A program made the position numbers and the translations under genes. Positions 1,441 through 31,423 of a stretch of 64,000 bases of DNA are shown one piece after another. Origin of the DNA: an uncultured Planctomycetaceae bacterium (GTDB lineage: Bacteria; Planctomycetota; UBA1135; GCA-002686595); contig CAZQAT010000001.1 in the NCBI GenBank assembly GCA_964591315.1, positions 81,673 to 145,672 on the forward strand. Reading direction: 5' to 3'. Under the pieces are notes generated by a model that worked only from the letters and a program-made list of their open reading frames with translations, was not told where the DNA came from and did no database searches. Each line of letters opens with the position of its first letter. Within the stretch, counting starts at the first letter, position 1.

Positions 1441-1474
1441 GAGCCGGGGAGCCGTGACGGCGGCTCCCCGGCTC
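1441..1474 (+). terminator. Perfect 14-bp GC-rich inverted repeat (GAGCCGGGGAGCCG / CGGCTCCCCGGCTC, 6-nt loop) in the sigma-to-secreted-protein spacer
   Basis: The inverted repeat was read directly. It is followed by ACTTTCATCC, a weak T-tract. It could be a terminator or a 5'-UTR structure. Confidence 0.35.
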
Positions 1475-1630
1475 ACTTTCATCCGACCGATCACCTCATG
1501 GAGAGGCCGTCCGTGGGTTTCGCTGTGGAGCTGGGAACCCGGAGCGAGCGATGGGCATTCCCCGAGTGACCGCGGGGCGATGGTGCCACCGCGCTGGCTT
1601 GAACCAGGTCCGCTTCTCACTCATAGACCA

Positions 1631-3199
1631 ATGAACCTGCTCCGTTCGGCGAGTTTCGCCACCGTCATCACGCCTCTGCTCCTGAGCCCCAGCGCCTTTG
1701 CCCTCGACGAAGAGGAGGGCCTCTTTCCGATCTTCATCGTCGACGCGACCCACGACCAGGTGTACCGGGGGATCGACGGTGACGAGGACCGCACCTACAA
1801 CCAGGCCGGGGAGATGACCGTCTTCTACGACGACACCCTCGGGTCCCTGGACCTTGACACCCCGACCTCGCTCCACACGTCGCCGAACGACTTCCTCTTC
1901 ATCAGTGACAGCTCCCACCAGCGGATCGTCACGATGGAGGACCTGAACGACGACGGGACCTGCCACGACACCGGTGAGCACTTCGTCTTCGCGGACTCCA
2001 CCAACGCCTCCGGTGTCCCGCTGCCGAACCTGCGGAACGTCTACGTCCGCAACCTCGGGGAGCTGTGGGCCACGAGCTCGAACGCCGACATCACGGAGAG
2101 CGACGCGATCCTCTTCTTCAACGACGCGAACAACGACGGCGACGCGAATGACGCCGGCGAGGTCACGGAGTACTACATGATCGCGCCCGGCGGCGCCGTG
2201 AACGACAGCGACCCGACTGCGGTGATCCAGCACCCGGACGGGCTGGCCTACTACGTCGAGAACGGCAGCTCGGGCGCCATCGCGAAGGGCGTGTACTGCC
2301 TCGAGGACCTGAACAACAACGGCGTCATCGACGCGCCGCTCGAGGTCAGCCCCTACTACCTGCCCACGGGAACGGGCATGGAGCTGGTCGCCCTGGACGT
2401 GGACGAGGCGGGCGTGGTCTATCTCCTGGACAACGGCCTGGACCGGATCTTCCGCCTCGAGGACTCCAACATGGACGGCGTGATCACCCCGGGTAGCGAG
2501 GACTGCGTCTACTACACCGCCCCCTCGAGCCAGGACTCCCCCGACCTCTCCGTGTCGCTCGACGGTCACGAGCTGATGGCCCTGGAGATCGCCTCCCTGG
2601 ACCAGATGTGGCTGATGGAGGACGAGGACGACGACTGCAGCATCGTCCATGGCATCGAGCGCGCTGAGGCCTACAACGACGTCGGCGGGAGCGTCTCCTG
2701 GGGTGAGACCACGGGCATCGACTGGGACTTCCACGGCCACGAGGTGGTTGGCACCCCCTTCTGCTTCGCCGTGCGGGACCGCTGCCCCTGCTCCAACGAC
2801 TTCGGCTTCTCCGGCTGCGCCAACTCCACCGGTGGCGGCGCCATCCTCGAGGGCGAGGGGACCGCTTCGGTCTCCCTCGACGACCTGGCCTTCCACGCCG
2901 TCGGGATGCCCGCGGGCGTCTTCGCCGTCCTGTTCCAGGGCGACGCGATGGTCAACGGTGGTCTCGGCAACCCCTTCTTCGATGGCCTCTTCTGCGTGGA
3001 TACGAACATCCAGCGCCTGGGTGCCGAGCAGGTCAGCGCCGGCGGCGACGCCGAGTGGGGCCCGGGGCTGCTGGCCGGCCTGGGTGAGTGGTCCGTCGGT
3101 GAGACCAAGAACTTCCAGGTCTGGTACCGCGACGTGACCGGCCCCTGCGGCTCGGGCGCCAACACCACGAACGGGGTGAGCATCACCTTCGAGCAGTAG
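1631..3199 (+). CDS. Secreted protein with repeated Dx[DN]xDG calcium-loop-like motifs and a Cys-rich C-terminal domain
   Basis: I placed the start at the internal ATG because it gives a signal peptide, MNLLRSASFATVITPLLLSPSAFA. The repeats are DLNDDG, NDANNDGDANDAGE, DLNNNGVID and DSNMDGVITPG. The C-terminus reads RCPCSNDFGFSGCANSTGGGA...FQVWYRDVTGPCGSG. Confidence 0.7.
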   Translation: MNLLRSASFATVITPLLLSPSAFALDEEEGLFPIFIVDATHDQVYRGIDGDEDRTYNQAGEMTVFYDDTLGSLDLDTPTSLHTSPNDFLFISDSSHQRIVTMEDLNDDGTCHDTGEHFVFADSTNASGVPLPNLRNVYVRNLGELWATSSNADITESDAILFFNDANNDGDANDAGEVTEYYMIAPGGAVNDSDPTAVIQHPDGLAYYVENGSSGAIAKGVYCLEDLNNNGVIDAPLEVSPYYLPTGTGMELVALDVDEAGVVYLLDNGLDRIFRLEDSNMDGVITPGSEDCVYYTAPSSQDSPDLSVSLDGHELMALEIASLDQMWLMEDEDDDCSIVHGIERAEAYNDVGGSVSWGETTGIDWDFHGHEVVGTPFCFAVRDRCPCSNDFGFSGCANSTGGGAILEGEGTASVSLDDLAFHAVGMPAGVFAVLFQGDAMVNGGLGNPFFDGLFCVDTNIQRLGAEQVSAGGDAEWGPGLLAGLGEWSVGETKNFQVWYRDVTGPCGSGANTTNGVSITFEQ

Positions 3200-3221
3200 A
3201 GCTCTAGCAGGGCTCCAGTGC

Positions 3222-3253
3222 GGGGGGGTCGGGCGTTGGGGCCCGGTCCCCCC
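3222..3253. terminator. Imperfect GC-rich hairpin between convergent genes
   Basis: A GGGGGG..GGGC / GCCC..CCCCCC stem with one mismatch and one bulge, followed by ATTT. It lies between the stop at 3197-3199 (+) and the stop at 3266-3268 (-). Confidence 0.25.
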
Positions 3254-3265
3254 ATTTCGTGCCGC

Positions 3266-4306
3266 TCAGTCCGCTGGCGTCAGCTCCTCGCGGCAGAACT
3301 CCACGGCCTCGACCAGGCTCTTGGCCTCGTGGACACCGGTCACTGCGAGGCGTGCGATGCCCTCGCCTTCGAGGCCGAGCTCGAGGGTCTGACCGAGCTC
3401 GATGGCCTCGCTGCGGGAGATCTCGAGCTCGTCCTCCGCGACCAGCTCGCCGTGCGCGTCGAGGGCCCGCACCTGGAAGAGGATCAGGCGGTCGTTGAGG
3501 CCGGGGATCTGGTGTCCCGCCCGGTTGGCGACGCGCAAGACGACGCCGTCCTCGGTGCGCCGCGCGGAGAGCCCGAAGGCCTGGCGCAGGAAGCCCGGGT
3601 CGCGCGGGGTCTGCAGGGCGTGGCTGCGGCCCTTGCGGGGGGCGTACTCGGTCTTGCCTTCGGGGTCGTTGGCGATCGGCCGCTCGACCGGCGCCATGTG
3701 ACAGCCCACGCAGGAGAAGCCCCGCTCGCCGAGCTCCTCGTCGTCGAAGTCGCGGCCGATGCCGATCACCGGGCCCACGCTGCGAGAGTGGCAGGAGAGG
3801 CACAGCTCGTTGGAGCCGAGCTCGCTGAAGAGCTCGTCCTTCAAGCTGCCGTGGGCTTGCTGTTCCTCGCCCCAGGGGCCGTGGATCTCCCCGCCGGGGC
3901 CCAGGTGGCAGGTCAGGCAGTCGACCCCCCAGTGCACGTTCTCCGCGCGGGTCTTGGGCCGCTTCGTGATCCCCGCCACGAGCAAGGGCTCCGGGGCGTG
4001 GCAGGAGGTGCACTTGGACTTCTTGCGGATCTTGGCCAGCTCCTCCTGGTAGAGCTCCTCGTTCCAGGCCTGGCCGTGGCGGGTGCCGGCCCACTCGAGG
4101 GCGATCGTCCGGTGGCACTCCGCGCAGCTCTGCTCCTCCCAGGCGGGGTTGAGCTCGGTGGCCGGGCTCTCCGCGGGGGCGGGGGTCTCCAGCTTCCAGG
4201 CACGGCCCGGGAGCTCCTCCTCGGCCGCCCGTTGGGCGATGGCCACTCCGATGGCGCCCAGGGCGATGGCCAGACCGGGGGCGAGGCGAACGAAGGTGGG
4301 GGGCAC
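3266..4306 (-). CDS. Pentaheme c-type cytochrome, secreted or membrane-anchored
   Basis: There are five CXXCH motifs (CAECH, CTSCH, CLTCH, CLSCH, CVGCH). The N-terminal hydrophobic signal is MPPTFVRLAPGLAIALGAIGVAIAQ. Confidence 0.85.
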   Translation of the reverse strand: MPPTFVRLAPGLAIALGAIGVAIAQRAAEEELPGRAWKLETPAPAESPATELNPAWEEQSCAECHRTIALEWAGTRHGQAWNEELYQEELAKIRKKSKCTSCHAPEPLLVAGITKRPKTRAENVHWGVDCLTCHLGPGGEIHGPWGEEQQAHGSLKDELFSELGSNELCLSCHSRSVGPVIGIGRDFDDEELGERGFSCVGCHMAPVERPIANDPEGKTEYAPRKGRSHALQTPRDPGFLRQAFGLSARRTEDGVVLRVANRAGHQIPGLNDRLILFQVRALDAHGELVAEDELEISRSEAIELGQTLELGLEGEGIARLAVTGVHEAKSLVEAVEFCREELTPAD

Positions 4307-4325
4307 GGGCCGCCTGGGGCGCTCC

Positions 4326-4499
4326 CTACTTGTCGAAGATGTTCGTCTCGCTCGGGGAGAGCCGCTCGTCGACGCGCTCGACCGTCAGGTCGAGCTTGGA
4401 GAAGTCCAAGCCCTTGGTCTTGTCCGTGACCGTCTTCGTGGACTCGTCGCGGCGCTTCGAGGTCGGGTCCTGGGGAGTCTTGGTGTCGTCTTTCTTCAT
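4326..4499 (-). CDS. Small hydrophilic 57-aa protein; candidate precursor peptide of the adjacent radical SAM pair
   Basis: Translated by hand; not in the supplied track. ATG at 4499-4497, TAG at 4328-4326. Sequence: MKKDDTKTPQDPTSKRRDESTKTVTDKTKGLDFSKLDLTVERVDERLSPSETNIFDK. A GGAGGAG Shine-Dalgarno ends 4 nt before the ATG. GC3 bias is high. It lies 150 nt downstream of rSAM-1 and 19 nt upstream of the cytochrome gene, on the same strand. Confidence 0.5.
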   Translation of the reverse strand: MKKDDTKTPQDPTSKRRDESTKTVTDKTKGLDFSKLDLTVERVDERLSPSETNIFDK

Positions 4500-4650
4500 G
4501 ATCTCCTCCGAGTCGTAGACGCCGATTGGGCCACCTGAGTTCCGAGGGAGCTGGGGCTGATTGCGGCGCGCACCGACCCGGAACCCTCCGAGGGCCTGAG
4601 TCTAGCGGTCGCTGTACCCAGTTCCAGGGTCGCCCAGAGGTGGGAATTGG

Positions 4651-6930
4651 TCAAGGGGTCCAGCCCTGCGAGGCGGTTGCGAGGGGTCTGAGGACCCCCA
4701 GGCGGTGCAGCTCGCCCGCGAAGGTGTCCAGGCGGCCGAGGGCCTCGCGGCCGGCGGGCATGGCGGTGTCGATGGAGTCGCGCAGCTCCGCGAGGGAGCC
4801 GGCGTCCCGCAGGGCCTCCAGCGCCCGCAGGCCGTCGGGGCGCAGCTCGATGAACTCCGCCTCCTGGCCGGCGTAGATCAGGACGCTCTCGCGCGGCTCG
4901 AGGGCCGCCAGCTCGCGGGCCGCGATACGCGCGGCCTCGGCGTCGAAGGTGCCGGTCTGGTTCTCCGGCCGCGCGGCCAGGGCCAGGCGCGAGCGCAGGG
5001 TGCGGCGCGTCTCGCCGTGGCTGAAGGGGACCTCGATCACCTCCAGGTCGTCTCCCACGCCCAGGTCACCCCGGGCCCCGCGGGCGGTGCGGGCCTCTTC
5101 GCGCGCGCGGCAGGCGGCGCTGAACTCCGAGGGTGTGGCGCCCGCCGCCAGGTGAAGGAAGTAGTGGCTCTTCTGCATGAAGTAGAGCACGTTCTCCCCG
5201 TTGAAGATCGGCAGACAGGCCCGCAGGCGTGCCCGGGCCTCACCATGGAGGACCGCGGTCTCCTCCTGGCTCATGCCGGACTCCACGCTGTAGTCGTGGT
5301 ACAGCTGCAGGTCCGCCTCGGGGTCGTCGTGAATCGTGATCCCGTAGCGCTCGGGACAGCGGAAGACCTGGGCCACCTCGTCGATGTGGAAGGTCTGCAG
5401 GCTGACCTCCTGGATCGTGCCCGCGTGCTCCTCGATGAAGCGCAGGGTGGCCTCTGCTTCCTCCCGCGTCTCGGTGGGGAAACCGACCATCGCGTACCAG
5501 GTGACGCTGATGCCCGCGGCGTGGCAGGCCTCGGAGACGAAGGTCACGTCTTCCTTGGTCTGGCCCTTCTCCATCATCTGCAGGATGCGGGGCGTGACCG
5601 ACTCGAAGCCGAAGAGGAGCTTGCGGCAGCCGGCGTCGAACAGGAGTTGAGCCCCCCCGTCGTCGTAGGAGCGCCGCTCGACCTTCGCGTCGCAGGACCA
5701 GGTGATCCCGGCTCCGCGCTCGATCAGCTCCCGGGGCAGCTCGCGCAGGGTCGCCGGCGGCATGCAGTCGGTGATGAAGTAGAAGCGGGAGCGCCCGTGT
5801 CGCTCCTTGAGGGCCAGGATGTCGTCCACCATCTGGGTGATGCGCCGGGTGCGGAAGCCCGGGCCGATGACGGTGGGGAGGGTGCAGAAGGTGCACTCGG
5901 AGTAGTAGCAGCCCCGGTTGATGTCGTAGGGGATCACCACGTCCGGCGAGAAGTAGAGGTCCCAGGGCAGGTCCTCGAAGTCCGGGGTGGGCGCCTCGTC
6001 CAGGGAGACCGGGTGGCCGCGCAGGTTCGTCACGGGGACGGCTTCCGGTCCCGAGCGGTCGAGCCAGAAGAGGGAGCCGATCTCCGTCAGACCGCCCCCG
6101 TCCTCCGAGGGGGCGCCGTCCCGCAGGGTCCGGGCCAGGAGCTCGATCGGCCGCTCCCCCTCGTGCTCGACGATCGAGTCCAGGCAGGCGCCGATGCCCG
6201 GGGCGGCCATCAGCTTCTCGCCGATGTAGGCCAGGAAGCCGCCGCCCATGGTCACGTGGCAGTCGGGCAGCTCCTCCTTGATCATGCGACCCAGGCTCAG
6301 GGCCGGGATCAGCTGGCTGCCGTAGATCACGCTCATGCCCACCAGCCGGGGGCGGCGCGCCACCAGCCGCGGCAGCACCTGCGTTCGGAAGTAGGCGAGG
6401 TAGGGGTTCTCGGCCTCGTCCGTCGTCGCCGCCAGGACCTCCTCGGAGCGGTCGATGGCGTAGCGCATCGTGAAGTTGTGGGGCGTCAACGCCGTCGGGA
6501 AGTGGGCGGCGGAGACCAGGCGCAGGCCGTTGTAGATCGTGCGCAGCGCGGGCAGGTAGCGCTGCTCGTCGTAGAAGTCCTCGCCGCGCAGGACGGCCTT
6601 GGCGTCCTGGATGCGCTCGATCACCTGGCGCGCGCTGACCCGGGTCTCCACGGCGGCCCGGTAGGCGGCCATCTCATCGAAGGGCAGGCGGTCGCGTCCG
6701 CCGTAGCTCTCGACGTCGAGTCGCTCCTGGGCCCGCAGGGCCGCTCGCTCGAGGTAGGCGGGGGTCAGGAAGTGCTCGTAGGACTCGACCGAGAGGTCGA
6801 GCAGCTCCACGTCCTCGAAGCCTGCCCCCTGCAGCCAGGACTTCAGGCAGGGCAGGGCCAGGTAGGGCTGCGTGAAGTGCGCCTGGGGTGGGAAGATCAG
6901 GGTGATCGGGAAGTCGTCGCGCGAGCTCAT
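4651..6930 (-). CDS. B12-binding-domain radical SAM protein (class B-like) with a long C-terminal extension
   Basis: The N-terminal Rossmann-like B12-binding region reads ITLIFPP...LVGMSVIYGS...VTMGGG. The radical SAM cluster motif is RGCYYSECTFC (CX4CX2C). The extension ends in a wHTH-like segment, LRALEALRDAGSLAELRD...FAGELHRLGVL. The start overlaps the upstream stop (ATGA). Confidence 0.85.
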   Translation of the reverse strand: MSSRDDFPITLIFPPQAHFTQPYLALPCLKSWLQGAGFEDVELLDLSVESYEHFLTPAYLERAALRAQERLDVESYGGRDRLPFDEMAAYRAAVETRVSARQVIERIQDAKAVLRGEDFYDEQRYLPALRTIYNGLRLVSAAHFPTALTPHNFTMRYAIDRSEEVLAATTDEAENPYLAYFRTQVLPRLVARRPRLVGMSVIYGSQLIPALSLGRMIKEELPDCHVTMGGGFLAYIGEKLMAAPGIGACLDSIVEHEGERPIELLARTLRDGAPSEDGGGLTEIGSLFWLDRSGPEAVPVTNLRGHPVSLDEAPTPDFEDLPWDLYFSPDVVIPYDINRGCYYSECTFCTLPTVIGPGFRTRRITQMVDDILALKERHGRSRFYFITDCMPPATLRELPRELIERGAGITWSCDAKVERRSYDDGGAQLLFDAGCRKLLFGFESVTPRILQMMEKGQTKEDVTFVSEACHAAGISVTWYAMVGFPTETREEAEATLRFIEEHAGTIQEVSLQTFHIDEVAQVFRCPERYGITIHDDPEADLQLYHDYSVESGMSQEETAVLHGEARARLRACLPIFNGENVLYFMQKSHYFLHLAAGATPSEFSAACRAREEARTARGARGDLGVGDDLEVIEVPFSHGETRRTLRSRLALAARPENQTGTFDAEAARIAARELAALEPRESVLIYAGQEAEFIELRPDGLRALEALRDAGSLAELRDSIDTAMPAGREALGRLDTFAGELHRLGVLRPLATASQGWTP

Positions 6931-8831
6931 GAGGGGCGGGAGGAGTCGTGGGGGGCCGGGCGGCTCTCTACGAGCCCAGCCCGGTGCAGTGAGTCGAGGG
7001 CACGTGAGATTCCGGGGTGCTCGACCTCGAGCTCCTCCGGGGTGCGGGGCTCCCGCAGGAGCTCCAGCACGGCGGCGGCGCCCGGGGCGAGCCTGTCACT
7101 GCGCACGCCGCTGGGCGTGGGCGTGACCGCGAAGGCCGTCGGGCAGGGGCTGCGATCGAGCTGCGAGGCGCCCCGCGCCAGCTCTTCCACCGTGCGTGCC
7201 AGGTCGTGCTCGAGGTGGACCACACGGGCCCGAGAGACGATGGTGCCCGGGCGCCCGTCGCGCGGGGGTCCGCCCCCGAGCTCGCCCAGCTCGGCCGCCG
7301 CGGCCTCCCAGGCGAGGGCGTCGCGCACGAGCCCGTCGTCCACCTGGGCGGCGAACCGGGGGAAGTCGAGGCCCGAGTCGCTCCAGGCCCTGTACAGCTC
7401 GTGCTGGCCACGGCCGGTGGCGCGGCGCACGAGCTCCCAGCTGCGCGGGTAGCTCGCCAGCACCGTGGGCAGCTCGTTGGCGAGGCGCGCCAGGTACAGC
7501 CAGCGCTGCTCGTCGCCCGCCGGCAGGGCCCAGGAGCTGAACAGGTCCGGGTGCTCGGCGATCAGGGCCAGCTCCGGCCCGGTCTCCCCGGCGCCGAAGG
7601 CCATGTCCGGCGGCACGCCGTCGATCGGGCGCGCGCCCTCGCCGTGGGTCTCCGCCAGGCCGCAGCCCGGCTGGGGGTTGGGCAGGTGCAGGGAGACGAT
7701 CGCATCCACCCGCAGGCTGGCCTGGACCACGAGGTCGAGGGACGCCTCGAGCTCCGCCTCGCCCTCACCCGGCAGGCCGAGGATCAGGGAGAGGATCGGA
7801 CGTATACCCGCCCGGCCCAGGCGCTCGACGGTGCCGAGCACGTCCAGGTCCTCGGGCTGGCCCTTGTGCGCCGCCTCGCGCACGGAGTGGGCGGCGGACT
7901 CCACCCCGAGCAGCACGCGGTAGCAGCCGGCGGCGGCCATGCTCTCGATCAGCTCAGGGTCGAGGTGGTCGACCCGCGCGCGGCACTCCCAGGGGCGCAC
8001 GCCGGCCTCGACCAGGGCCGCGCAGAACTCGAGGGCGTGCTTGCGGTCGGCGCCGAAGATGTCGTGGCAGAGGTAGGCGTTCTTCGCGCCGGGGATCCCC
8101 TCGAGGGCGTGCACCTCCTCCACGAGCCGCGCGGCCGGCAGGACGCGCGAGCGGCGTGACCAGTAGCGGCCGATGGTGCAGAAGCTGCAGTCGTAGACGC
8201 AGCCCCGGCCCGAATCCAGGGGCACCAGGCCATCGGGCTCGCCGGTGATGTTCTTGTAGTCCTCGAGGGGCGGGAGCAGGTGCCAGGCGTAGGCGGGCAG
8301 TGCGCCCAGGTCCGCCAGGGGAGACCGCGCTGCCTCGCGCACCACGGCGCCCTGCTCGTCGCGCCAGAAGACGCCCGCGACGCCCCGTGCATCGCGGCCC
8401 GCGCCCCAGGCCTCGATCAGCTCCGGCAGGGTCTCCTCCGCCTCCCCGTCGACCACCGCGTCGATCCAGGGGAAGCGCTCGAGCAGGGCCGCGGCGGTGC
8501 CGGTCGTCCCGGGGCCGCCGAGCACCAGGCGCGCAGTCGGTTGCAGCTCCCGCAGGCGCCGGGCGATCAGGAGCGCCGCGGGCAAGGTCGCGCCCATGAC
8601 CGACAGGCCGATCAGGTCGAAGCTGCCGCGCTTGTGGACCAGGCGCGCGGCGCTCTCGCACAGGAGGCTGCCGCTCGCCAGCTCACCCCGGGCGGAGCGG
8701 AAGGCCAGGTCCTCCAGCTCCACCGCCAGGCTGCGCCGCTCGAGCTCCGCGCCCAGGCGCAGGAGGCCGGGGGGCGGCATCGAGTAGCCGAAGGTGTCTC
8801 GGAACGGGGCTTGGACCAGGAGGGTGCGCAT
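6927..8831 (-). CDS. B12-binding-domain radical SAM protein with a C-terminal wHTH-like extension
   Basis: I placed the start at MRTLLVQAPF. The B12-domain region reads FDLIGLSVMG...LVLGGPG. The canonical motif is GRGCVYDCSFC (CX3CX2C). The C-terminus reads AAAVLELLREPRTPEELEVEHPGISRALDSLHRAGLVE. Confidence 0.85.
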   Translation of the reverse strand: MRTLLVQAPFRDTFGYSMPPPGLLRLGAELERRSLAVELEDLAFRSARGELASGSLLCESAARLVHKRGSFDLIGLSVMGATLPAALLIARRLRELQPTARLVLGGPGTTGTAAALLERFPWIDAVVDGEAEETLPELIEAWGAGRDARGVAGVFWRDEQGAVVREAARSPLADLGALPAYAWHLLPPLEDYKNITGEPDGLVPLDSGRGCVYDCSFCTIGRYWSRRSRVLPAARLVEEVHALEGIPGAKNAYLCHDIFGADRKHALEFCAALVEAGVRPWECRARVDHLDPELIESMAAAGCYRVLLGVESAAHSVREAAHKGQPEDLDVLGTVERLGRAGIRPILSLILGLPGEGEAELEASLDLVVQASLRVDAIVSLHLPNPQPGCGLAETHGEGARPIDGVPPDMAFGAGETGPELALIAEHPDLFSSWALPAGDEQRWLYLARLANELPTVLASYPRSWELVRRATGRGQHELYRAWSDSGLDFPRFAAQVDDGLVRDALAWEAAAAELGELGGGPPRDGRPGTIVSRARVVHLEHDLARTVEELARGASQLDRSPCPTAFAVTPTPSGVRSDRLAPGAAAVLELLREPRTPEELEVEHPGISRALDSLHRAGLVESRPAPHDSSRPS

Positions 8832-8990
8832 GGGGGCACATGATCCGGAACGGTGGCGCGGCCGCCAAGGCGCGTCTTTTGGAAGCTTCGGCCGAATCTT
8901 AGAGTGGCGGGTCGTAATACGCCCTTCGCCACACCCTCTCTCCAAGGGCGGCCTCGGCCGCCGGGTGCCCACTCCCACGGAGCCAACTCG

Positions 8991-11900
8991 ATGTCCCATC
9001 GTCAATCGGTCAGCCTCTTCGTCGCCCTGTGCCTCCTCGCCGCCAGCACCTGCACCTACTTCGCCTTCTTCGAGGGCGACGACAGCGAGGTGGAGTCCTC
9101 CCTGCAGAAGGGGCAGACCTCGGCCGAGACGGTCCAGGCGCCTTCGACCGACCTGGTGGACCAGGAGGCCGCGCCGGAGGTCGCTCCGGAGGTCGGGGAG
9201 CTTCAGCCCCGGGAGCAGGAGGACGAGCGCGTCGACGCCACCAGCCTGGAGGAGCCGGTCGAGGACGAGCAGGAGCCGGCCGAGCTGACCTACGTCACCG
9301 GCCGCGTGGCCCTGGGCTTCGACCTGCCGGCGGACGAGGTCCTCTGGGTGGCCAGCGTGGACCGCGAGCGGGGAGCCAGGTCCCTCTACGGCAACAGGGG
9401 CGTGGTGGACCCGATCTGGTCCCCGGGCGAGGAGCACCATGGCCTGATCAGCCACGCCCGGGTGGAGCCGGACGGCAGCTTCCGGGTCGGCCTGTCCGCG
9501 GACGCCGACGAGGGCTTCCTGGCCCTCACGGGGCGCTACGTCATCTCCAAGCGCACGACCCGCGTGAGCACCGCCGAGGGCTCACCCGAGCCTGTACTGA
9601 CGGGGGAGCTCGGCTCCTGGATCACCGGTCAGCTGCGCGTCCCCAGCGGGCTGGCGGAGGACGTCCCCCTCGGGGGCATCGAGATGGAGCTGGGCGTCGA
9701 CATCACGGCGGCCTTCAACCCCATGGAGATGCCCGGGGTGGCCTACGACATGGAGGTCGAGACCGACGCCGAGGGGCGCTTCGAGTTTCGCGGCGTCTCG
9801 AGCGTGGTCAGCCACGGGATCATCGTCCACCACGAAGACCTGGCGGAGACCCTGATCCTGGGCCTGCGGCCGGAGCCGGGCGAGCACCGCGAGCTCAACG
9901 TGCGCCTGCAGGAGGGCGCGACCCTGAAGGGCATGGTGGTGGACGAGAGCGGCGCCGGCGTGCCGGGTGCGGAGCTCGAGGTGACCCTGCGCGGCACCCT
10001 GGGCGACTCCATCGGGGACATGCGCAAGGCCAGCACCGACGCCGAGGGCAACTTCGTCCTCGAGCACGTGGTCACCGGCCATCAGATCGAGATCCACGCG
10101 GAGGTCGAGGGCATGCGCCCGGGGGAGCTGAAGCTCGAGGACAAGCTCCGGGACGGACAGCTGCTGGAGGGCCTGCGGATCGAGCTGCGGGAGGGCCTCA
10201 GCATCGCGGGCCGCTTGCTCTACCCCGACGGCCAGCCCGTCTCGGAGGGGGAGGTCCGCGTCGTGAACGACCTGACCAGCTCGGACCTGGCCATGATGGG
10301 GGCCCGGGCCGCAGCCATGCGTCGCATGGAGGTGGAGAGCGACGAGGAGGGCCGCTTCGAGGTCAAGGGCCTGGACGAGGGGACCTACATGCTCGCGGTC
10401 AAGCACGAGAACGACGAGGGGGCTCACGAGGGCAAGTGGCGCGCCCGCCAGGGCGGCGTGACCGGCGGGACCACGGGACTCGTGCTGGAGCTCGAGGGCC
10501 TGACGCCCGTGGCCGGCTTCGTGACCACCGAGTCCGAGCGTGAGCTCGAGACCTTCACGGTGCAGATGACCCTCCAGGGCTCCGGGGGCATGATGGGCGT
10601 GGGGGCCGAGCGCCTGCGGGAGGAGTTCGATTACGACGCCGAGGGCGGCTTCGAGAAGGAGAACGTGCCCCCCGGGGTGTGGGACGTGACAGTCGTGGCG
10701 GCCGGCTTCGCCCGCTCCGAGACCCAGGAGGTCACGGTTCCTCAGGGTGAGGGGCTGCCCCTGCCCGAGTTCGCCCTCGTCCCGGCGGCCGGGGTCCAGG
10801 GCACGGTCTACGACACGGCCAACCAGCCCGTCGCCGGCGCCAAGGTGACCCTGGAGCTGGACCTCGCCTCACGCATCAACGTGGCCTTCAGCGGAGAGCA
10901 GCCCTCGGCGCTCTCGGACCACGAGGGTCGATTCACTCTCGGTGACCTCGACCCGGGCTCCCTCTCGGTGGTCGCTGGCCTCGACGGCTTCGCGGACAGC
11001 GAGCCCTTCGCCGTGGACCTCGAGCCGGGTCAGCTGGCCACGGACGTGAACCTGGTGCTGCGCCTGGGGGGCACGGTCTACGGGCAGGTGCTGGGCGCGG
11101 AGGGCAAGCCGGCCGTCGGCCGCATGGTCATCGTCCAGCGGTTGCCCAGCTACGCCTCTCAGCACATGGGCTCGAGCGACTCCGACGGCGAGTTCAGCTT
11201 CGAGCACCTCGAGCCCGGCCAGTGGCAGGTGGTGTCGATGCCGAACATGATGACGGGCGAGCTCGATGTGGGGTCCGGCGACGGCATGGGGGAGATGCTC
11301 AGCGACCTGAAGATGGACATGGTCGACGTCGTCGACGGGGGCGAGCACGAGGTCATCCTGGGCCAGCCGCCGGAGGACCCTGTCCAGGTCCTGGGCAGCG
11401 TGACCCACGACGGTGGGGGCATCCCCGGCGCGCTCGTGTCGTTCATCTCCGAGAAGTCCGAGGGGATCGGGGACCTCAAGATGACCACGACCAACGAGGA
11501 AGGAAACTTCTCCGTGCAGCTCGACAACCGGGGCCACTACATCGTCAATGTCCAGAACAACGTGGGCACCGGCCGGCAGAACAACCTGGAGTTCCAGGAG
11601 CGCATCCCTGAAGAGGGGGAGACTCATCGGCTCGAGCTGAAGCTGCCCAGGGCCGCCATCGCGGGCAAGGTGATCGGCCTGGACGGCAAGCCCGCGCCGA
11701 ACTGCCGCGTCTCCCTCAACGTGGACGGGGGCATCCCGTACGGCTCCCTGCTCGGAGGTCACTTCGCCGAGCTCGCCACGGACGCGGAGGGTCGCTATCA
11801 GTTCGACTACGTGCGCCCCGGGAGCTACACCGTCAGCGCCGGCGGAGCGACCATGGCGGGGGTGTTCGGTAACGACAGCCTGGGGGGCCGCGTGGTGCGC

Positions 11901-12506
11901 GACGGCATCCAGGTGGCCGAGGATCAGCTGGTCAAGGGGGTCGACTTCCGCCTGGAGGAGCCTGGCTCCTTGGGCGGTGTCGTCTACGGCCTCGACGGGC
12001 AGCCCGTGTCGGGGGCGGCGGTCTTCGTGCGCGACGCTGCAGGGCGCCGGCTGGAGCGTTTCTCGATGATCAACACCGACAACGCCGGCCGCTACGAGTA
12101 CCACGGGCTGGGCAAGGGGGAGTACAGCGTCGCGGCCCGCAAGGGGGGCTCCGTCAGCGAGGGCAGTGGGCTGGTCAGCGTGCGCGCCGGGGAGACCTCC
12201 AAGGCGGACGTCACCCTGGGGGACGGGACCGTCTTCCTGATCAGTGTCATCGACCGTACAGGCGCCACCGTCGACGCCCGCGTGCAGGTCATCAACGAGG
12301 CCGGCCACGAGATTGGGGGCATGCTGTCCCTGAACGAGATGATGAACTACATGGGCGGCGGCTTCTCGCACGACGAGCAGCGCGTGGGGCCCGTGCCCCC
12401 CGGCAAGTACCGGGTCGAGGTGACCCTGGAAGACGGGCGCTCCAAGCGCAAGAGCGTGCGCGCCTCGGGACAGTCGGAGCGCAAGCTGAAGATCCGGATC
12501 GACTAG
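8991..12506 (+). CDS. Large secreted protein made of repeated carboxypeptidase-regulatory-like (prealbumin-fold) domains
   Basis: The internal ATG gives the signal/anchor MSHRQSVSLFVALCLLAASTC. Many repeats follow the pattern G.V.D..G.PV.GA.V, for example GMVVDESGAGVPGAELEV, GTVYDTANQPVAGAKVTLE and GVVYGLDGQPVSGAAVFVRD. Confidence 0.8.
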   Translation: MSHRQSVSLFVALCLLAASTCTYFAFFEGDDSEVESSLQKGQTSAETVQAPSTDLVDQEAAPEVAPEVGELQPREQEDERVDATSLEEPVEDEQEPAELTYVTGRVALGFDLPADEVLWVASVDRERGARSLYGNRGVVDPIWSPGEEHHGLISHARVEPDGSFRVGLSADADEGFLALTGRYVISKRTTRVSTAEGSPEPVLTGELGSWITGQLRVPSGLAEDVPLGGIEMELGVDITAAFNPMEMPGVAYDMEVETDAEGRFEFRGVSSVVSHGIIVHHEDLAETLILGLRPEPGEHRELNVRLQEGATLKGMVVDESGAGVPGAELEVTLRGTLGDSIGDMRKASTDAEGNFVLEHVVTGHQIEIHAEVEGMRPGELKLEDKLRDGQLLEGLRIELREGLSIAGRLLYPDGQPVSEGEVRVVNDLTSSDLAMMGARAAAMRRMEVESDEEGRFEVKGLDEGTYMLAVKHENDEGAHEGKWRARQGGVTGGTTGLVLELEGLTPVAGFVTTESERELETFTVQMTLQGSGGMMGVGAERLREEFDYDAEGGFEKENVPPGVWDVTVVAAGFARSETQEVTVPQGEGLPLPEFALVPAAGVQGTVYDTANQPVAGAKVTLELDLASRINVAFSGEQPSALSDHEGRFTLGDLDPGSLSVVAGLDGFADSEPFAVDLEPGQLATDVNLVLRLGGTVYGQVLGAEGKPAVGRMVIVQRLPSYASQHMGSSDSDGEFSFEHLEPGQWQVVSMPNMMTGELDVGSGDGMGEMLSDLKMDMVDVVDGGEHEVILGQPPEDPVQVLGSVTHDGGGIPGALVSFISEKSEGIGDLKMTTTNEEGNFSVQLDNRGHYIVNVQNNVGTGRQNNLEFQERIPEEGETHRLELKLPRAAIAGKVIGLDGKPAPNCRVSLNVDGGIPYGSLLGGHFAELATDAEGRYQFDYVRPGSYTVSAGGATMAGVFGNDSLGGRVVRDGIQVAEDQLVKGVDFRLEEPGSLGGVVYGLDGQPVSGAAVFVRDAAGRRLERFSMINTDNAGRYEYHGLGKGEYSVAARKGGSVSEGSGLVSVRAGETSKADVTLGDGTVFLISVIDRTGATVDARVQVINEAGHEIGGMLSLNEMMNYMGGGFSHDEQRVGPVPPGKYRVEVTLEDGRSKRKSVRASGQSERKLKIRID

Positions 12507-17720: not shown

Positions 17721-18247
17721 GACGTCACCTCCTCGGACTCCAGGCGGATCTCCACCGCCCCGTGGCGGTGCAGGAGCTCGTGGAACTCGCCGTCGCGGAA
17801 GGCGGCGTCCGCCTGCGCCAGGATCAGGGCGTGGCGGTCGTCGGTGGTGGCCTCGAGCCCCTCCGGCGCACGTCGACCCGGCCACAGCCCCGAGCGCAGG
17901 AGCAGCGCCGCGGCCGTCGCGAGCCCCGCGAAGAGGATCGTCAGCTCGAAGCCCACCACCGCGAAGGCGGCGAACGAGTTGAAGGGCTTGCCGCCCACGT
18001 TGATGGGCCAGCTCACGCCGCTGGACCAGTACTGGAACCAGAAGCCGAGCACGCAGCCGGTGGCCCCGCCGATCAGGGTCACCCAGGGCAGGCGCGAGCG
18101 GCGGATCCCGAGCACGTCGTCCAGGCCGTGGATGGGGAAGGGCGAGATCACGTCGACCACGGGGATGCTCCGCTCGCGGCACTCGGCCGCGGCGGCCAGC
18201 AGGGCGTGCTCGTCCTCGAAGAAGCCGGTGTGCAGGCGGCGGCTCAT
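17717..18247 (-). CDS. actD: Alternative Complex III subunit ActD (DUF3341-like)
   Basis: It begins MSRRLHTGFFEDEHALLAAAAECRERSIPVVDVISPFPIHGLDD and has two C-terminal TM helices. The start overlaps the actC stop (ATGA). Confidence 0.8.
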   Translation of the reverse strand: MSRRLHTGFFEDEHALLAAAAECRERSIPVVDVISPFPIHGLDDVLGIRRSRLPWVTLIGGATGCVLGFWFQYWSSGVSWPINVGGKPFNSFAAFAVVGFELTILFAGLATAAALLLRSGLWPGRRAPEGLEATTDDRHALILAQADAAFRDGEFHELLHRHGAVEIRLESEEVTS

Positions 18248-19659
18248 GCGACCTCCCGGTGGGCCGCGGCTGACCCGCTGCGCCGCTCGAGGTTCGGCTT
18301 GACCTCGAACATGGCGATCATGGGCACGTAGCGGCAGAAGAGCAGGAAGAGGGTGAAGAACAGGCCGAAGCCTCCCACCAGGGAGCCGACCTCGATCCAG
18401 GTGGGCACGTAGCCCGACCAGCTCGAGGGCAGGAAGTCCCGGTGCAGGGAGGTCACGATGATCACGAAGCGCTCGAACCACATGCCCACGTTGACCACCA
18501 GCGAGAGCAGGAAGAGGAGCAAGAGGTTGTTGCGCACCTTGCGGAACCACAGCAGCTGGGGCGAGATCACGTTGCAGGTCACCATGATCCAGAAGGACCA
18601 GGCCATCGGGCCGCGCATGCGGTTGAGGAAGACGAACTGCTCGTACTTGCTCTGGGAGTACCAGGCCACGAAGAACTCGGTCAGGTAGGCCAGGGCCACG
18701 ATGCTGCCGGTGAACACGAGCACCTTGCAGATGGCGTGGATGTGGCGCATCGTGATGTAGTCCTCGAAGCGCATGGTCTTGCGCGCCACGAGCATCAAGG
18801 TCAACACCATCGCGAAGCCCGAGAAGACGGCCCCGATCACGAAGTAGGGCGGGAAGACCGTCGTGTGCCACCCCGGGATGACCGAGGTGGCGAAGTCGGA
18901 GCTCACGACGCTGTGCACGGAGACCACCAGAGGCGTGGCCAGGGCCGCCAGCAGCACGCAGGCCGCCTCGTAGCGCGACCAGGTGCGGGCGGTGCCGCGC
19001 CAGCCGAGGCTGAGCAGGCTGAAGATCTTCTTGCGGAACCCCTTGGCCCGGTCGCGCACCGTGGCCAGGTCCGGGATCATGCCCACGTACCAGAACACCA
19101 ACGAGATCGTGAAGTAGGTCCCGATGGCGAAGACGTCCCACAGGAGCGCCGAGCGGAAGTTGACCCACAGGGGCCCGCGGAAGTTCGGGTAGGGGAAGAC
19201 CCAGTAGGCCAGCCACGGTCGCCCCATGTGGATCACCGGGTACAGGCCGGCGCAGATCACCGCGAAGATCGTCATCGCCTCCGCGGAGCGGTTGATCGAG
19301 GTGCGCCACTTCTGGCGGAACAGCAGCAGGACCGCGGAGATCAGGGTCCCCGCGTGGCCGATCCCGACCCAGAAGACGAAGTTCGTGATGTCGAACCCCC
19401 AGCCGACCGTGCGGTTGAGGCCCCAGGTGCCGATGCCGTTGGCGACCTGGTAGCCGACCGCGAGGACGCCCAGGAGCAGGGCCGAGAGGGCGGCCAGGAA
19501 GCCCGCGTACCACAGGCCCGTGGGCTTGCCCTCCAGGGGCCCGCACACGTCGCGCGTCATGTCCCCGGCGCTCTTTCCGCCGGTGATCAGCGGCGGCTCG
19601 TCCGGGGGCGCTGCAAGGGGCGGGGCGAGGGGCGCCGCCAGGTGCTGCTCAACCGTCAT
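18244..19659 (-). CDS. actC: Alternative Complex III quinol-interacting membrane subunit ActC (NrfD/PsrC family)
   Basis: A 471-aa polytopic NrfD-like protein that overlaps the actB stop by 11 nt. Confidence 0.9.
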   Translation of the reverse strand: MTVEQHLAAPLAPPLAAPPDEPPLITGGKSAGDMTRDVCGPLEGKPTGLWYAGFLAALSALLLGVLAVGYQVANGIGTWGLNRTVGWGFDITNFVFWVGIGHAGTLISAVLLLFRQKWRTSINRSAEAMTIFAVICAGLYPVIHMGRPWLAYWVFPYPNFRGPLWVNFRSALLWDVFAIGTYFTISLVFWYVGMIPDLATVRDRAKGFRKKIFSLLSLGWRGTARTWSRYEAACVLLAALATPLVVSVHSVVSSDFATSVIPGWHTTVFPPYFVIGAVFSGFAMVLTLMLVARKTMRFEDYITMRHIHAICKVLVFTGSIVALAYLTEFFVAWYSQSKYEQFVFLNRMRGPMAWSFWIMVTCNVISPQLLWFRKVRNNLLLLFLLSLVVNVGMWFERFVIIVTSLHRDFLPSSWSGYVPTWIEVGSLVGGFGLFFTLFLLFCRYVPMIAMFEVKPNLERRSGSAAAHREVA

Positions 19660-22600
19660 GGTGTCCGGCCTCCGGGCTCGCGTGCCCGTCGCTGGGTGGG
19701 TTCGTGATGCGTGCCAGGTAGTGCACCGAGGGCTTCACGTTGAGCTCCTCGAGCACTCGGTAGGAGCGCTGTCGGTGGGCGAGCTTCGAGACCTCGCTCT
19801 CGGGGTCGTTCAGGTCGCCGAAGACGATGGCGCGGGTCGGGCAGGACTGCTGGCAGGCCACCCTGATGTCCCCGTCCGCCAGGGGCACGCCCTTGCGCAC
19901 CGCCTCGGACCTCGCCTCCTGGATGCGCTGGGCGCAGAAGCTGCACTTCTCCATGACCCCGCGGGTGCGCACGGTCACGTCCGGATTGAGGGCCTGGTTC
20001 TCGAGCTCGTCCTCGTGCGGATAGTCGAACCAGTTGAAGCGCCGCACCTTGTAGGGGCACGTGTTCGCGCAGTAGCGGGTGCCGACGCAGCGGTTGTAGA
20101 CCTGCTGGTTGAGGCCGTCGGTCGAGTGCACGGTGGCCAGCACCGGGCAGACCGCCTCGCAGGGGGCGTGGTCGCACTGCTGGCAGAACATGGGCTGGTG
20201 GGCGGCGCCCAGGTCGTCCTCGCCGCCGGTGAAGTAGCGGTCGATACGCATCCAGCTCATCTCCCGGTGGCGCAGGACCTCGTCCTTGCCCACCACCGGC
20301 ACGTTGTTCTCCGCCTGGCAGCCCACCGCGCAGGCGGAGCAGCCGATGCAGCGGGTCAGGTCCACGCTCATGCCCCAGCGGGGGCCGTCGTTGGCGTGGT
20401 CGTCGGGCCACAGCTCTGCCTCCGGCAGGTGGTGGCCGTGGGCCAGGGCGTGCTCGGGGTCGTGCTGGAAGTCGGCGAAGGTGGCGGCCCGCACGGCGTT
20501 GCGCACCTCGCCGCCCTCCGGGGCGACGTGCGGCGGGACCTCGAGGGAGTGGTGGTCCTGGGTGGAGGCCAGGTCGACGCGCCCGCCGGCCGCCTCGACC
20601 CGCAGGCCGCCGCGCTGGTGGCGCAGGGCCCCGTCGCGCAGCTCGCTCAGGAGGGCCGCGTTGGCGCCGATGGTCTCGCCTCTCTCGATCGTCGGCTGGC
20701 CCTCGAGCCACTGCGGGCCGACCTTGGCGAAGCGGTCCGTCCCGATGCGTCCGTAGCCCAGGGCCACGGCCACCACGTCGTCGTGCTGGCCGCGCTGCAC
20801 CAGGGTCGGCAGCACGAGCTCCGGGCCGCCCTCGGCGGCCACCAGGCGCACCAGGTCGCCGTCCTCCAGGCCGAGCTGCTCGGCGCGAGCGGGGGAGAGG
20901 CTGGCCCAGTTGTCCCAGGTGACCTTGGTGATCGGGTCCGGCAGCTCCTGCAGCCAGGGGTTGTGGGCGTGGCGGCCGTCGAGCTGGGCCAGGTTGGCGT
21001 GCAGCACGAGGGTCAGCCCGCCCGCCGCGGCGCCGGTCGGCGCGGCGCCGAGGGCAGCGCCGTCGAAGGCAGGCTCCGCGGGCTGGCGCGCCTCCTGCAC
21101 GAAGCCGTCGTGCAGGGCGCGGTCGAAGAAGGCCTGGAAGTCCTCGCCGGCGGCGACCCGCGGGTGAACGTGCGCGCGCCAGGCGTCGCGCAGGAGGTCG
21201 TAGTCCTCGCGGGCGTCACCGATCCAGGAGGCCAGGAGGCGCGCCAGGCTGCGCGTCTGGCGCAGGGCCGGAAGGGCCGGCTGGGTCAGGGACCAGCGCC
21301 CGACCTCCGGCTCTCCGTCGCCCCAGGCCTCGAGGGCGTGGGGGCGGGGCAGGACGAGGTCCGCCAGGCCCACGGTCTCGTCGAGGCTCGCCGCGTGGGC
21401 CACGTGGGTGCCGGCCCTCTCGATCGCCGTCACGACGTCCGGCGGCAGGTCGTAGGCCGGGTTGACGCCGGAGGTGATCAGGAGCTCGACACTGCCCGCC
21501 TCGAGCTCCGCGCGCAGGTTGGCCAGGGCGCGGTCGTCCCCGCGCATCTGGTTCGAGGGGCGCGCGACCGACAGCGTTCGGCCGTAGGCCCCGAGCAGCT
21601 CGTTGGCGTAGGCGGTGTGGAGCTGGGCCTGAAGGTCGTTCTGACCGCAGACGACCAGGGCCTGCCCGCGGGCGCGCCAGAGCTCGTCCGCCAGCTCCTC
21701 GACCCAGGGCGCGGCCTCGACCTCGCCGTCCAGGCGGCCGCCTGCCCCCGCGCGCGTCTCGAGGGCGCGGCAGAGGGCGAAGAGCTGGGCGGGCACGTCG
21801 TCCGGGGCGACCCGCAGGCGCCGGTCGGCGACGGTGCCGGTGAGGGACACCCGCGCCTCGAGCTGCACGTGGCGGGACATCCAGCCCTCCTCGCGGTCGG
21901 GCCGGCGCCCCTCGGCGTAGGCGGCGGCGAAGGCCACGGGCGAGATCCAGGTGCCGAGGAAGTCCGCCTCGAAGGAGGCGATCACTTCGGCCTTGTCGAA
22001 GCGGAAGCTCGGCAGGGCGCGCACCCCCCGCGTCAACCCGTGGGCGTCGAGCAGGGCGGAGACCGAGAGGGCGTCGTAGGCGACGTGGCGGGCGTTCGGG
22101 TTCACCTCCAGGAAGGCCTCGAGCGCCGCCTGCTGGGCGGGGCCGTGGAGGCTGCCGGTCAGGAGGCGTACCGCGCCGCCGGAGGCCCGGGCCGCGTCGA
22201 GGCGCGCGGCGACGAAGGCGTCGGCCTCGGACCAGGTGGTGGCCTCGAAGCCGCCGCTGTCCGTGGCGCGCTGGGGTGCGGTGAAGCGCCTCGAGTCGTA
22301 GAGGGAGAGGACCTCTGCCTGGCCCACGGCGCACAGGCCGCCGCGGGAGAGGGCGTGGGTCTCGTTGCCCTCGAGCTTGATCGGGCGCCCGTCGCGGCAC
22401 TTGGCCAGCACCCCGCAGGCGGCGGAGCAGCCGGCGCAGGTGGTGGCCAGCCAGTAGGCCCGGCCAGCTACGGTGCCGACGGGGGCGAGCAGGTTCGGCA
22501 CCACGTGCCGCAGAGGCGCGCGGCTACAGCTGCTGAGGGCCCCGGCCGTCAGGCCGAAGCCGGTCAAGCGCAGGAAGGCGCGTCGGGAGACGTCCGTGTC

Positions 22601-22669: not shown

Positions 22670-22671
22670 GG

Positions 22672-24960: not shown

Positions 24961-25001
24961 GGCGCGGTGGGGAGGGAGGGCGTGGTGGTTCCGCGGGAGG
25001 G

Positions 25002-26269: not shown

Positions 26270-26272
26270 GGC

Positions 26273-27760: not shown

Positions 27761-27783
27761 GGATCAGGTCCTTCTGGCTGGGG

Positions 27784-31407: not shown

Positions 31408-31423
31408 GAGGCTCGTAGCAGGC

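Follow-up and report, generated by a model that had tools for sequence, protein, structure and literature searches.

A candidate peptide-modification module in Planctomycetota: two B12-binding radical SAM enzymes and a small peptide with an invariant C-terminal tail

Introduction

B12-dependent radical S-adenosylmethionine (SAM) enzymes alkylate unactivated carbons, and to our knowledge few of those that modify peptides have been characterised. Here we describe a locus in a 64,000-nt stretch of planctomycete DNA (the window; G+C content about 70%, all positions being those of the whole window) in which two B12-binding radical SAM enzymes, termed rSAM1 and rSAM2, are encoded beside a small precursor-like peptide. 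We think it fairly probable that the three genes form a new module resembling those for peptides that are made on the ribosome and modified after translation (RiPPs), in which the two enzymes, each fused to a RiPP recognition element (RRE), modify, and probably C-methylate, the invariant tail of the peptide.

Several described systems come close to such an arrangement. In bottromycin biosynthesis several B12-dependent radical SAM methylases place beta-methyl groups on Pro, Val and Phe of a core containing V-F-D. In quinohaemoprotein amine dehydrogenase (QhpC/QhpD/QhpA) a small polypeptide modified by a radical SAM enzyme works with the c-type haem subunit of the same operon. A physiological function is rare among RiPPs, the comparable cases being pyrroloquinoline quinone (PQQ), mycofactocin and cases of the clavusporin type. 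ApyD is an RRE-containing, B12-dependent radical SAM enzyme that adds a beta-methyl group to the penultimate Tyr in the C-terminal GYLYD motif of ApyA (PMC10635010), and ApyI is the RRE protein of the same pathway. For the clavusporins a physiological (developmental) role, not an antibiotic one, has been described (PMC10849626).

Peptide modification by RRE-guided B12-dependent radical SAM enzymes is thus already a known kind of system. The particular enzyme pair, the precursor family and their genomic setting appear to be undescribed; our literature search returned no description of the enzyme pair or of the precursor family, and the tail motif was not found in it.

Results

Organisation of the locus

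Four co-directional genes lie on the minus strand between positions 3266 and 8831, in the order rSAM1, rSAM2, small peptide open reading frame (ORF) and pentahaem cytochrome c. The original prediction for this DNA had drawn exactly this arrangement, including an ATGA overlap between the enzyme genes, a 57-codon ORF and a cytochrome starting 19 nt past the peptide stop, and the ORF layout and the sequence bear out all of it. The genes are as follows.

6927-8831, minus strand: rSAM1, B12-binding radical SAM enzyme, 634 aa, with the canonical CVYDCSFC cluster motif
6927-6930, minus strand: stop/start overlap ATGA of rSAM1 and rSAM2, from the ORF coordinates
4651-6930, minus strand: rSAM2, B12-binding radical SAM enzyme, 759 aa, with a variant CX4CX2C motif and with a B12 domain that carries a helical insertion
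4326-4499, minus strand: precursor-like peptide gene, 57 codons plus stop, 151 nt after rSAM2
3266-4306, minus strand: pentahaem c-type cytochrome, 346 aa, beginning 19 nt past the peptide stop; a facultative neighbour

The long ORF of rSAM1 spans 6927-9455. We placed the real start at the ATG at 8831 (MRTLLVQAPFRD..., MRTLLVQ...) because the N-termini of 19 homologues match there. The same 4-nt overlap between the enzyme genes is found in the loci of Engelhardtia mirabilis (L001) and of a TARA marine lineage (L002).

Conservation of the enzyme-enzyme-peptide trio

A search with rSAM2 yielded 296 relatives with at least 55% identity over the full length, mostly from metagenome-assembled genomes of Planctomycetota and also from Engelhardtia mirabilis Pla133. 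When one genome per species was scanned (185,579 species), 117 were found to encode a relative, almost all of them Planctomycetota. We fetched 80 loci from these 117 species-level genomes and 75 were informative; six genome loci stop right after rSAM2, and in L061 the peptide copy is broken by Ns. Not one of the 75 informative genome loci lacks the peptide gene. Scanning metagenomes for a DNA pattern brought in 71 further loci, for a total of 146, each with a single copy of the peptide. In 49 of the 52 metagenome loci having enough upstream sequence, rSAM2 lies directly upstream of the peptide gene; the three exceptions are sub-lineages with inserted genes, in which the enzymes are 4-7 kb off. 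In nearly every locus rSAM1 is the gene directly upstream of rSAM2, and insertions of 1-4 kb occur in a few.

The genes rSAM1, rSAM2 and peptide are co-linear in every informative locus, and we looked for radical SAM pairs lacking an adjacent small ORF and found none. The trio is therefore a real conserved module, and the cytochrome is outside its invariant part. As regards the conservation of the gene order, which the original prediction had left to be checked, the enzyme-enzyme-peptide part stood in all informative loci. The cytochrome part did not hold generally, its gene being adjacent in only about 40-45% of loci, although the linkage is old and tight where present.

The two radical SAM enzymes

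Both enzymes show the class B layout, with a B12-binding Rossmann domain at the N-terminus and a TIM-barrel-like radical SAM domain after it, as had been foreseen. The Pfam models B12-binding (PF02310) and Radical_SAM (PF04055) score above their gathering thresholds in rSAM1 (46.2 and 62.5 bits, respectively) and in rSAM2 (34 and 60.5 bits). Source annotations of these genes read 'radical SAM protein' in a generic sense, 'BchE', 'YgiQ' or 'hypothetical protein', or are missing altogether. The best NCBIfam match of rSAM1 is ApyD (NF050148; 189.9 bits against a cut-off of 750, E 7e-56), in an alignment covering model positions 24-429 of 645, that is, the B12 and radical SAM core only; rSAM2 scores 78.3 bits against the same model. 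The best match of rSAM2 is TIGR03975, the RiPP maturation radical SAM C-methyltransferase family (112.9 bits against a cut-off of 281.85, E 1.5e-32), which rSAM1 also matches at 85.7 bits. Neither enzyme reaches the cut-off of any named NCBIfam family, in keeping with the earlier remark that this is not a described family. Membership in a lipid or cofactor clade was also looked for, and the families HpnR, HpnJ, ladderane TIGR04072, BchE, BzaD and PhpK gave 38-93 bits versus cut-offs of 360-650. Over the B12 and radical SAM core, rSAM1 and rSAM2 are 28% identical to each other.

The cysteines expected to bind the [4Fe-4S] cluster are located as follows.

8178-8201, minus strand: rSAM1 [4Fe-4S] motif C211-x3-C215-x2-C218, its columns invariant in alignment A2
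5884-5910, minus strand: rSAM2 cluster motif C341-x4-C346-x2-C349 (GCYYSECTFC), invariant in alignment A1

Relative to rSAM1, the rSAM2 motif contains a one-residue insertion, giving CX4CX2C, which is kept throughout the rSAM2 family. Six extra cysteines of rSAM2 (Cys 28, 224, 249, 389, 435 and 469) are invariant in 19 homologues; they may belong to an auxiliary cluster or serve in redox chemistry. In addition, rSAM2 carries a long helical insertion in its B12-binding domain at residues ~46-175 (window ~6405-6795, minus strand), with helices at 84-115 and 122-143 modelled at high predicted local distance difference test (pLDDT) values. This insertion of about 110 aa does not occur in rSAM1 and lies outside the TIGR03975 match.

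AlphaFold2 (AF2) gave models with a pLDDT of 89.0 and a predicted template modelling score (pTM) of 0.87 for rSAM1, and with a pLDDT of 85.8 and a pTM of 0.88 for rSAM2. In Foldseek searches the rSAM1 model matched TsrM (2e-21) as well as AprD4, TokK, CysS and MgmA, and the rSAM2 model matched OxsB and TsrM at 1e-12. Both enzymes are thus confidently modelled as class B (cobalamin) radical SAM folds. In each model a helical linker is followed at the C-terminus by a beta-hairpin, three helices and a short strand, with a pLDDT of ~90-95.

6957-7145, minus strand: predicted RRE-like winged-helix module at the C-terminus of rSAM1, ~residues 563-625, from AF2 and weak profile matches
4681-4893, minus strand: putative PqqD-like RRE module at the C-terminus of rSAM2, ~residues 680-750, from AF2 and profile matches

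The elements of the rSAM1 module are strands 565-572 and 575-581, helices 583-591, 598-604 and 608-617, and strand 621-623 (pLDDT mostly 84-95); those of the rSAM2 module are strands 682-687 and 692-696, helices 698-710, 713-718 and 725-743, and strand 747-749 (pLDDT 92-95). In both models the order of elements is that expected of a PqqD-type RRE. The C-terminal segments of 18 homologues were also scanned individually against Pfam and NCBIfam. For rSAM2, seven of the 18 matched Pfam PqqD weakly (best E 1.2e-3), seven matched the PqqD-family chaperone TIGR04353 weakly (best E 9.8e-5) and one matched the lasso-peptide PqqD family. For rSAM1, there were weak MarR_2/GntR winged-helix matches in Pfam and weak, scattered matches to PqqD_rel_X, ApyI, PqqD and MftB2 in NCBIfam, weaker than those of rSAM2. 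Against PDB sequences the C-terminal domains gave marginal winged-helix matches only (FurB, GdmN, and PbtF at E 0.9). The profile signal for an RRE is weak, yet it is consistent in being all of one kind. The winged-helix-like C-terminal extensions that the original prediction had read off the sequence thus appear in the models as confident beta-beta-alpha-alpha-alpha(beta) modules, accompanied by repeated weak PqqD/RRE matches.

The peptide

Across the loci the peptide is 51-87 aa long, with a median of 58. Its N-terminal 25-45 residues are unalignable, with much Ala, Glu, Lys, Pro, Asp and Thr; this stretch is unconstrained, disordered and acidic. By contrast, the 27 residues at the C-terminus fit the pattern [LI]D[LF]xxLDLx[VI]ExV[ED]ERI[S]P[S]ETN[VI]FDK-stop, within which we distinguish two parts.

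4362-4409, minus strand: conserved leader-like segment LDFSKLDLTVERVDER, peptide residues 31-46, pattern [LI]D[LF]xxLDLx[VI]ExV[ED]ER; putative RRE recognition strand
4329-4361, minus strand: invariant tail LSPSETNIFDK, peptide residues 47-57, from column conservation; putative modification site

Across 73 unique peptide sequences the tail residues P, E, T, N, F, D and K never change, and only 10 distinct last-12-mers and two distinct last-7-mers occur among 65 peptides. Synonymous codons vary at invariant residues, being CTC in 33, CTG in 28 and TTG in nine cases at Leu(-20), CCG in 46 and CCC in 24 at Pro(-9), and ACC in 39 and ACG in 33 at Thr(-6), which shows that selection acts on the peptide as a protein and not on the DNA or RNA. 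We also considered that the peptide might be a chance ORF, and rejected this on the strength of the conservation and the codon pattern. The peptides have no Trp, no Tyr and essentially no Cys, and Phe(-3) is the sole aromatic residue of the tail.

No Pfam or NCBIfam model, including those of the NHLP and Nif11 leaders, matched the peptide at E <= 0.01. A peptide profile run against 1.84 billion cluster representatives gave 64 matches, nearly all of 50-76 aa and ending in ETNVFDK, so that the family is narrow. A word-index search with the peptide of the window retrieved just its 27 nearest relatives because this peptide has the rarer ETNIFDK variant; the whole family was seen only via the hidden Markov model search and the DNA-pattern scan.

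In one sub-lineage (L070, L061, L098, L114, L134, L138 and others) the leader-like segment is remodelled to IALELANRKLEIRKVDER, which replaces LDFxKLDLTVExVEER, and the tail is retained as IAPSETNVFDK. This sub-lineage would be useful for asking whether leader and RRE have co-evolved.

The cytochrome and its neighbourhood

The cytochrome of the window has five CXXCH motifs, a signal-like N-terminus, a Pfam Cytochrome_C554 match (41.3 bits versus a cut-off of 20.8) and a distant match to the pentahaem c552 structure 5ze8. Its orthologues have five CXXCH motifs in 28 of 30 cases, a signal-like N-terminus in all, and a conserved C-terminal RSHxLQTPRDP...NxxGHxxPGL region. An assignment as ActA, the pentahaem subunit of alternative complex III, is unsupported, there being no match to ActA chains among PDB sequences. 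Where an orthologue is present, it comes after the peptide gene and is read from the same strand, at distances from the peptide stop that were distributed as follows.

Cytochrome at no more than 500 nt: 23 genome loci and the window
Cytochrome at 0.5-1 kb: 2 genome loci
Cytochrome at 2.6-3.2 kb: 4 genome loci
Cytochrome absent, flank of 1.5 kb or more: about 36 genome loci

The locus of E. mirabilis is without the cytochrome, and among the metagenome loci it was present in 14 of 38. It is accordingly a frequent (about 40-45% of loci) but non-obligatory neighbour. In a neighbour-joining tree of rSAM2 the cytochrome-linked loci are spread over all deep branches, a distribution that fits an ancestral peptide-cytochrome linkage followed by repeated loss or rearrangement. 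Furthermore, in three lineages where unrelated genes fill 2-3 kb between rSAM2 and the peptide gene, the latter is still beside the cytochrome; in L008/L084 the gap between them is 10 nt despite the insertion after rSAM2.

About 30 loci continue on the same strand into a gene for a VWA-domain protein of ~540 aa, and in about 18 the block then enters nuoA, B, C/D, E and F with short gaps. In L026, L027, L036, L039, L058, L079 and others, the block of radical SAM, peptide and cytochrome genes is directly upstream of the VWA gene and then the complex I operon, all on one strand, which makes a conserved arrangement above the level of the single operon. The window itself contains neither a VWA gene nor nuo genes.

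Other neighbours and the remainder of the window

Genes neighbouring the module in the fetched loci include those for a secreted Ca-repeat protein, a Zn-phospholipase C, CarboxypepD_reg giants, a VWA protein, Nuo subunits and DUF1501/DUF1800 proteins, among others. In the TARA marine lineage (L002 10493-11317; L018, L125, L127) a gene of the homocysteine S-methyltransferase family (PF02574, E 3e-53) directly follows the peptide gene; as it is confined to this one lineage, it was rejected as a part of the module. In E. mirabilis (L001, 1-1330 and 14147-15520), FecCD and Peripla_BP_2 genes for a BtuCF-like ABC uptake system lie ~5 kb upstream of the radical SAM pair, and a group II intron reverse transcriptase gene downstream occupies the place that the nuo operon has in other genomes.

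Two further features of the four-gene unit were noted in the window.

4503-4509, minus strand: Shine-Dalgarno sequence GGAGGAG of the peptide gene, read off the sequence
8832-8990, strand not given: divergent intergenic region upstream of rSAM1, from the ORF layout; likely promoter region

The GGAGGAG ends 3 nt before the peptide ATG and its GGAGG core 5 nt before it, which makes a strong Shine-Dalgarno sequence. No consensus match to a sigma-70 promoter or an intrinsic terminator exceeded the shuffled expectation on the relevant strand within 3000-9300, no cobalamin riboswitch or other known RNA matched Rfam at the gathering threshold in the window, and no structured or attenuator RNA was found in the 151-nt spacer between rSAM2 and the peptide gene (fold z-score -0.35).

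The unit is flanked by a divergent plus-strand gene at 8853-12506, encoding a CarboxypepD_reg repeat protein, and by a convergent plus-strand gene at 1454-3199. The former is one of two very large secreted CarboxypepD_reg repeat proteins in the window, the other being at 38189-41245 on the minus strand, and its orthologue is the divergent upstream neighbour of the radical SAM pair in L004, L007 and L008. Farther off, a respiratory nitrate reductase cluster occupies 23353-32278 of the minus strand, with a MFS transporter (23353-25164), NarH-like (26273-27760) and NarG-like (27784-31407) subunits and a c-type cytochrome that contains two cytochrome c domains (31424-32278), and a sigma-54 two-component pair follows it (32437-36116). 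What looks like an alternative-complex-III-like pair is encoded at 18244-22927 of the minus strand. Its ActB-like member is a molybdopterin-Fe4S4/4Fe-4S dicluster protein of 1092 aa and its ActC-like member a membrane subunit of the NrfD family; a cytochrome of the ActA type was not identified alongside this pair.

Discussion

We favour the view that the peptide is the substrate of the two enzymes in a relation of the RiPP type. Our reasoning for this is that: (i) the trio co-occurs strictly; (ii) each enzyme bears a predicted domain of the peptide-recognition type; (iii) the nearest relatives of the enzymes are RiPP C-methylases and (iv) the conserved part of the peptide consists of an amphipathic, beta-strand-like segment and an invariant tail. 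The RiPP-like reading put forward in the original prediction is supported in this respect, and none of the observations named at the time as speaking against it was made where it could be looked for.

A plausible scenario would begin with the segment LDFxKLDLTVExVEER docking as a beta-strand on the putative PqqD-like RRE at the C-terminus of each enzyme. Each enzyme would then cleave SAM at its [4Fe-4S] cluster to give a 5'-deoxyadenosyl radical, which would take a hydrogen from an unactivated carbon of the tail, and methylcobalamin would supply the methyl group. We infer radical methyl transfer from the class B fold and from the nearest characterised relatives. By analogy with ApyD, the nearest relative of rSAM1, which modifies a Tyr before a C-terminal Asp, rSAM1 would most likely beta-methylate Phe(-3), the sole aromatic of the tail and also placed before Asp. 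By the same kind of analogy rSAM2, nearest to TIGR03975, would most likely methylate an aliphatic side chain, for example that of Val/Ile(-4). The residues modified, the binding of peptide to RRE, the methyl-transfer chemistry and the role of the product are all parts of this putative scheme. Given an invariant tail, a single-copy gene, a clade-wide module and no link to a protease or exporter, the product looks like a housekeeping molecule rather than a variable antibiotic, and suggests a physiological function instead of chemical warfare. It would be either a modified small protein or a peptide-derived molecule.

Several points weigh against this interpretation. The scores against ApyD and TIGR03975 are far under the cut-offs, which means that function cannot be transferred by family membership, and the cluster motif of rSAM2 is non-canonical. 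The RRE matches are weak in that no member of set A5 exceeds a Pfam gathering score in a whole-protein sense, and hhalign relates the C-terminal domains of rSAM1 and rSAM2 with only 40% probability. Neighbour-gene clustering over the 80 loci revealed no conserved leader peptidase, ABC/MATE exporter or extra tailoring enzyme; RiPP systems can do without a leader peptidase or exporter. Natural-product RiPPs do not usually have an invariant core, and B12-dependent radical SAM enzymes also carry out cross-linking, ring contraction, dehydration and P-methylation. Finally, the peptide modification itself is a prediction.

The first alternative keeps the peptide as substrate, but has one or both enzymes install a C-C or C-heteroatom cross-link in place of a methyl group, such as a Phe-x-Lys or a Val/Phe-centred link of the cyclophane type in N-V-F-D-K. 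There is precedent in that B12-dependent radical SAM enzymes which cross-link aromatic residues of RiPPs are documented for biphenomycin-like peptides (PMC12257519). The tail does hold an aromatic-x-Lys triad, and rSAM2 is an outlier by virtue of its variant cluster motif, its six extra invariant cysteines and a score of only 113 bits to any RiPP methylase family. Nevertheless, the best-scoring families are methyltransferases and the structural neighbours are mostly methylases (TsrM, TokK, CysS, MgmA). The three-residue cyclophanes known to us are, moreover, formed by enzymes of the SPASM type and not of the B12 type. We therefore regard a cross-link as unlikely.

It could also be that the peptide is not a substrate at all and is an independent conserved small protein, for instance one that regulates or assists the cytochrome or the respiratory cluster, with the radical SAM enzymes acting on some other molecule such as a lipid, a cofactor, the cytochrome or another protein. 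Consistent with this idea, the peptide gene remains by the cytochrome when other genes separate it from rSAM2 (L008/L084, L044, L054), linkage to a protease or exporter is absent, and class B radical SAM enzymes include many lipid and cofactor enzymes, among which HpnJ, BchE and the ladderane family give weaker matches here. However, the peptide gene is within a few kb of the enzyme genes in all loci, including the ~55-60% that have no cytochrome, both enzymes bear a predicted domain of the peptide-recognition type for which lipid and cofactor methylases have no need, and the score of every lipid or cofactor family is 4-10 fold under its cut-off. For these reasons we consider an independent role of the peptide quite improbable.

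A third proposal, that the modified tail is excised to give a peptide-derived redox cofactor or mediator for the pentahaem cytochrome or complex I, in the manner of PQQ or mycofactocin, draws on the invariant core and variable remainder typical of cofactor precursors, on an ancient, scattered peptide-cytochrome adjacency with spacers of 6-25 nt and on the position of the block directly upstream of VWA-nuoA-F on the same strand in many loci, but it is very doubtful given that the tail is without Tyr, Trp and Cys, the sources of known quinone-type cofactors, that the cytochrome is missing near more than half of the loci, including that of E. mirabilis, that there is no peptidase linkage, that the cytochrome is periplasmic but the peptide is without an export signal, and that synteny inside one clade may be mere inheritance.

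Modification, probably methylation, of the invariant tail thus remains the reading that we favour. The cytochrome and the placement before VWA-nuoA-F give a faint hint of a respiratory or redox link of the module, weakened by the lack of an export signal in the peptide and of redox-prone residues in the tail. In its fullest form the idea would be of a housekeeping, clade-wide modified peptide tied to respiration, either as a peptide-derived cofactor or mediator or as a C-methylated partner of the periplasmic pentahaem cytochrome and the adjacent complex I cluster. We hold this to be a long shot; if true, it would give B12-radical-SAM RiPP chemistry a biological role that is new. That the module recurs beside a multihaem cytochrome and the nuo operon does at least offer a concrete hypothesis on planctomycete respiration.

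The system pairs two divergent, putatively RRE-fused B12-binding radical SAM enzymes with a defined invariant substrate tail of 11-12 residues, and its description would add one precursor family and two enzyme families to annotation resources. As it is present in the cultured Engelhardtia mirabilis Pla133, it is directly testable.

Comparison with known systems

The described system nearest to rSAM1 is the ApyD/aminopyruvatide pathway (NF050148; PMC10635010), in which an RRE-containing cobalamin-dependent radical SAM enzyme likewise acts on a ribosomal peptide and an aromatic residue likewise stands right before Asp at the C-terminal end (Y-D in ApyA, F-D-K here). It differs from our locus in that the latter lacks an MNIO (ApyHI), a P450 and an ApyS methyltransferase and has an unrelated precursor, two B12-binding radical SAM enzymes versus one, and a host in Planctomycetota versus Burkholderia or actinomycetes. 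Enzymes of the TIGR03975 type, associated with proteusin/NHLP precursors, are also B12-binding radical SAM proteins encoded beside a precursor peptide. Here, in contrast, the scores are below the cut-off, the peptide is without an NHLP or Nif11 leader, and rSAM2 has the CX4CX2C motif and the helical insertion of ~110 aa.

The P...N-V-F-D of the present tail recalls the bottromycin core, a short-motif resemblance that is a lead only; unlike bottromycin clusters, the locus lacks a YcaO, an amidohydrolase and a follower peptide. The Qhp system likewise differs in the Cys thioethers and Trp-derived quinone of QhpC, in its SPASM enzyme and in its dedicated exporter, none of which is seen here. With the clavusporins (B12-dependent radical SAM enzyme plus DUF5825; PMC10849626) the module shares the character of a widespread, lineage-conserved RiPP with predicted C-methylation by B12-dependent radical SAM enzymes. 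The clavusporins, however, are hydrophobic surfactant peptides of actinomycetes whose enzyme needs its DUF5825 partner, whereas our locus encodes a hydrophilic, strongly acidic peptide and is without a DUF5825 gene. PQQ (PqqA/D/E) and mycofactocin (MftA/B/C) depend on SPASM-type enzymes, a Tyr in the core and dedicated peptidases and oxidases, which are all lacking here. What these two systems have in common with our module is a small precursor with an invariant C-terminal core, a PqqD-type element that presents, or here would present, the precursor to a radical SAM enzyme, and a clade-conserved and, here probably, housekeeping character.

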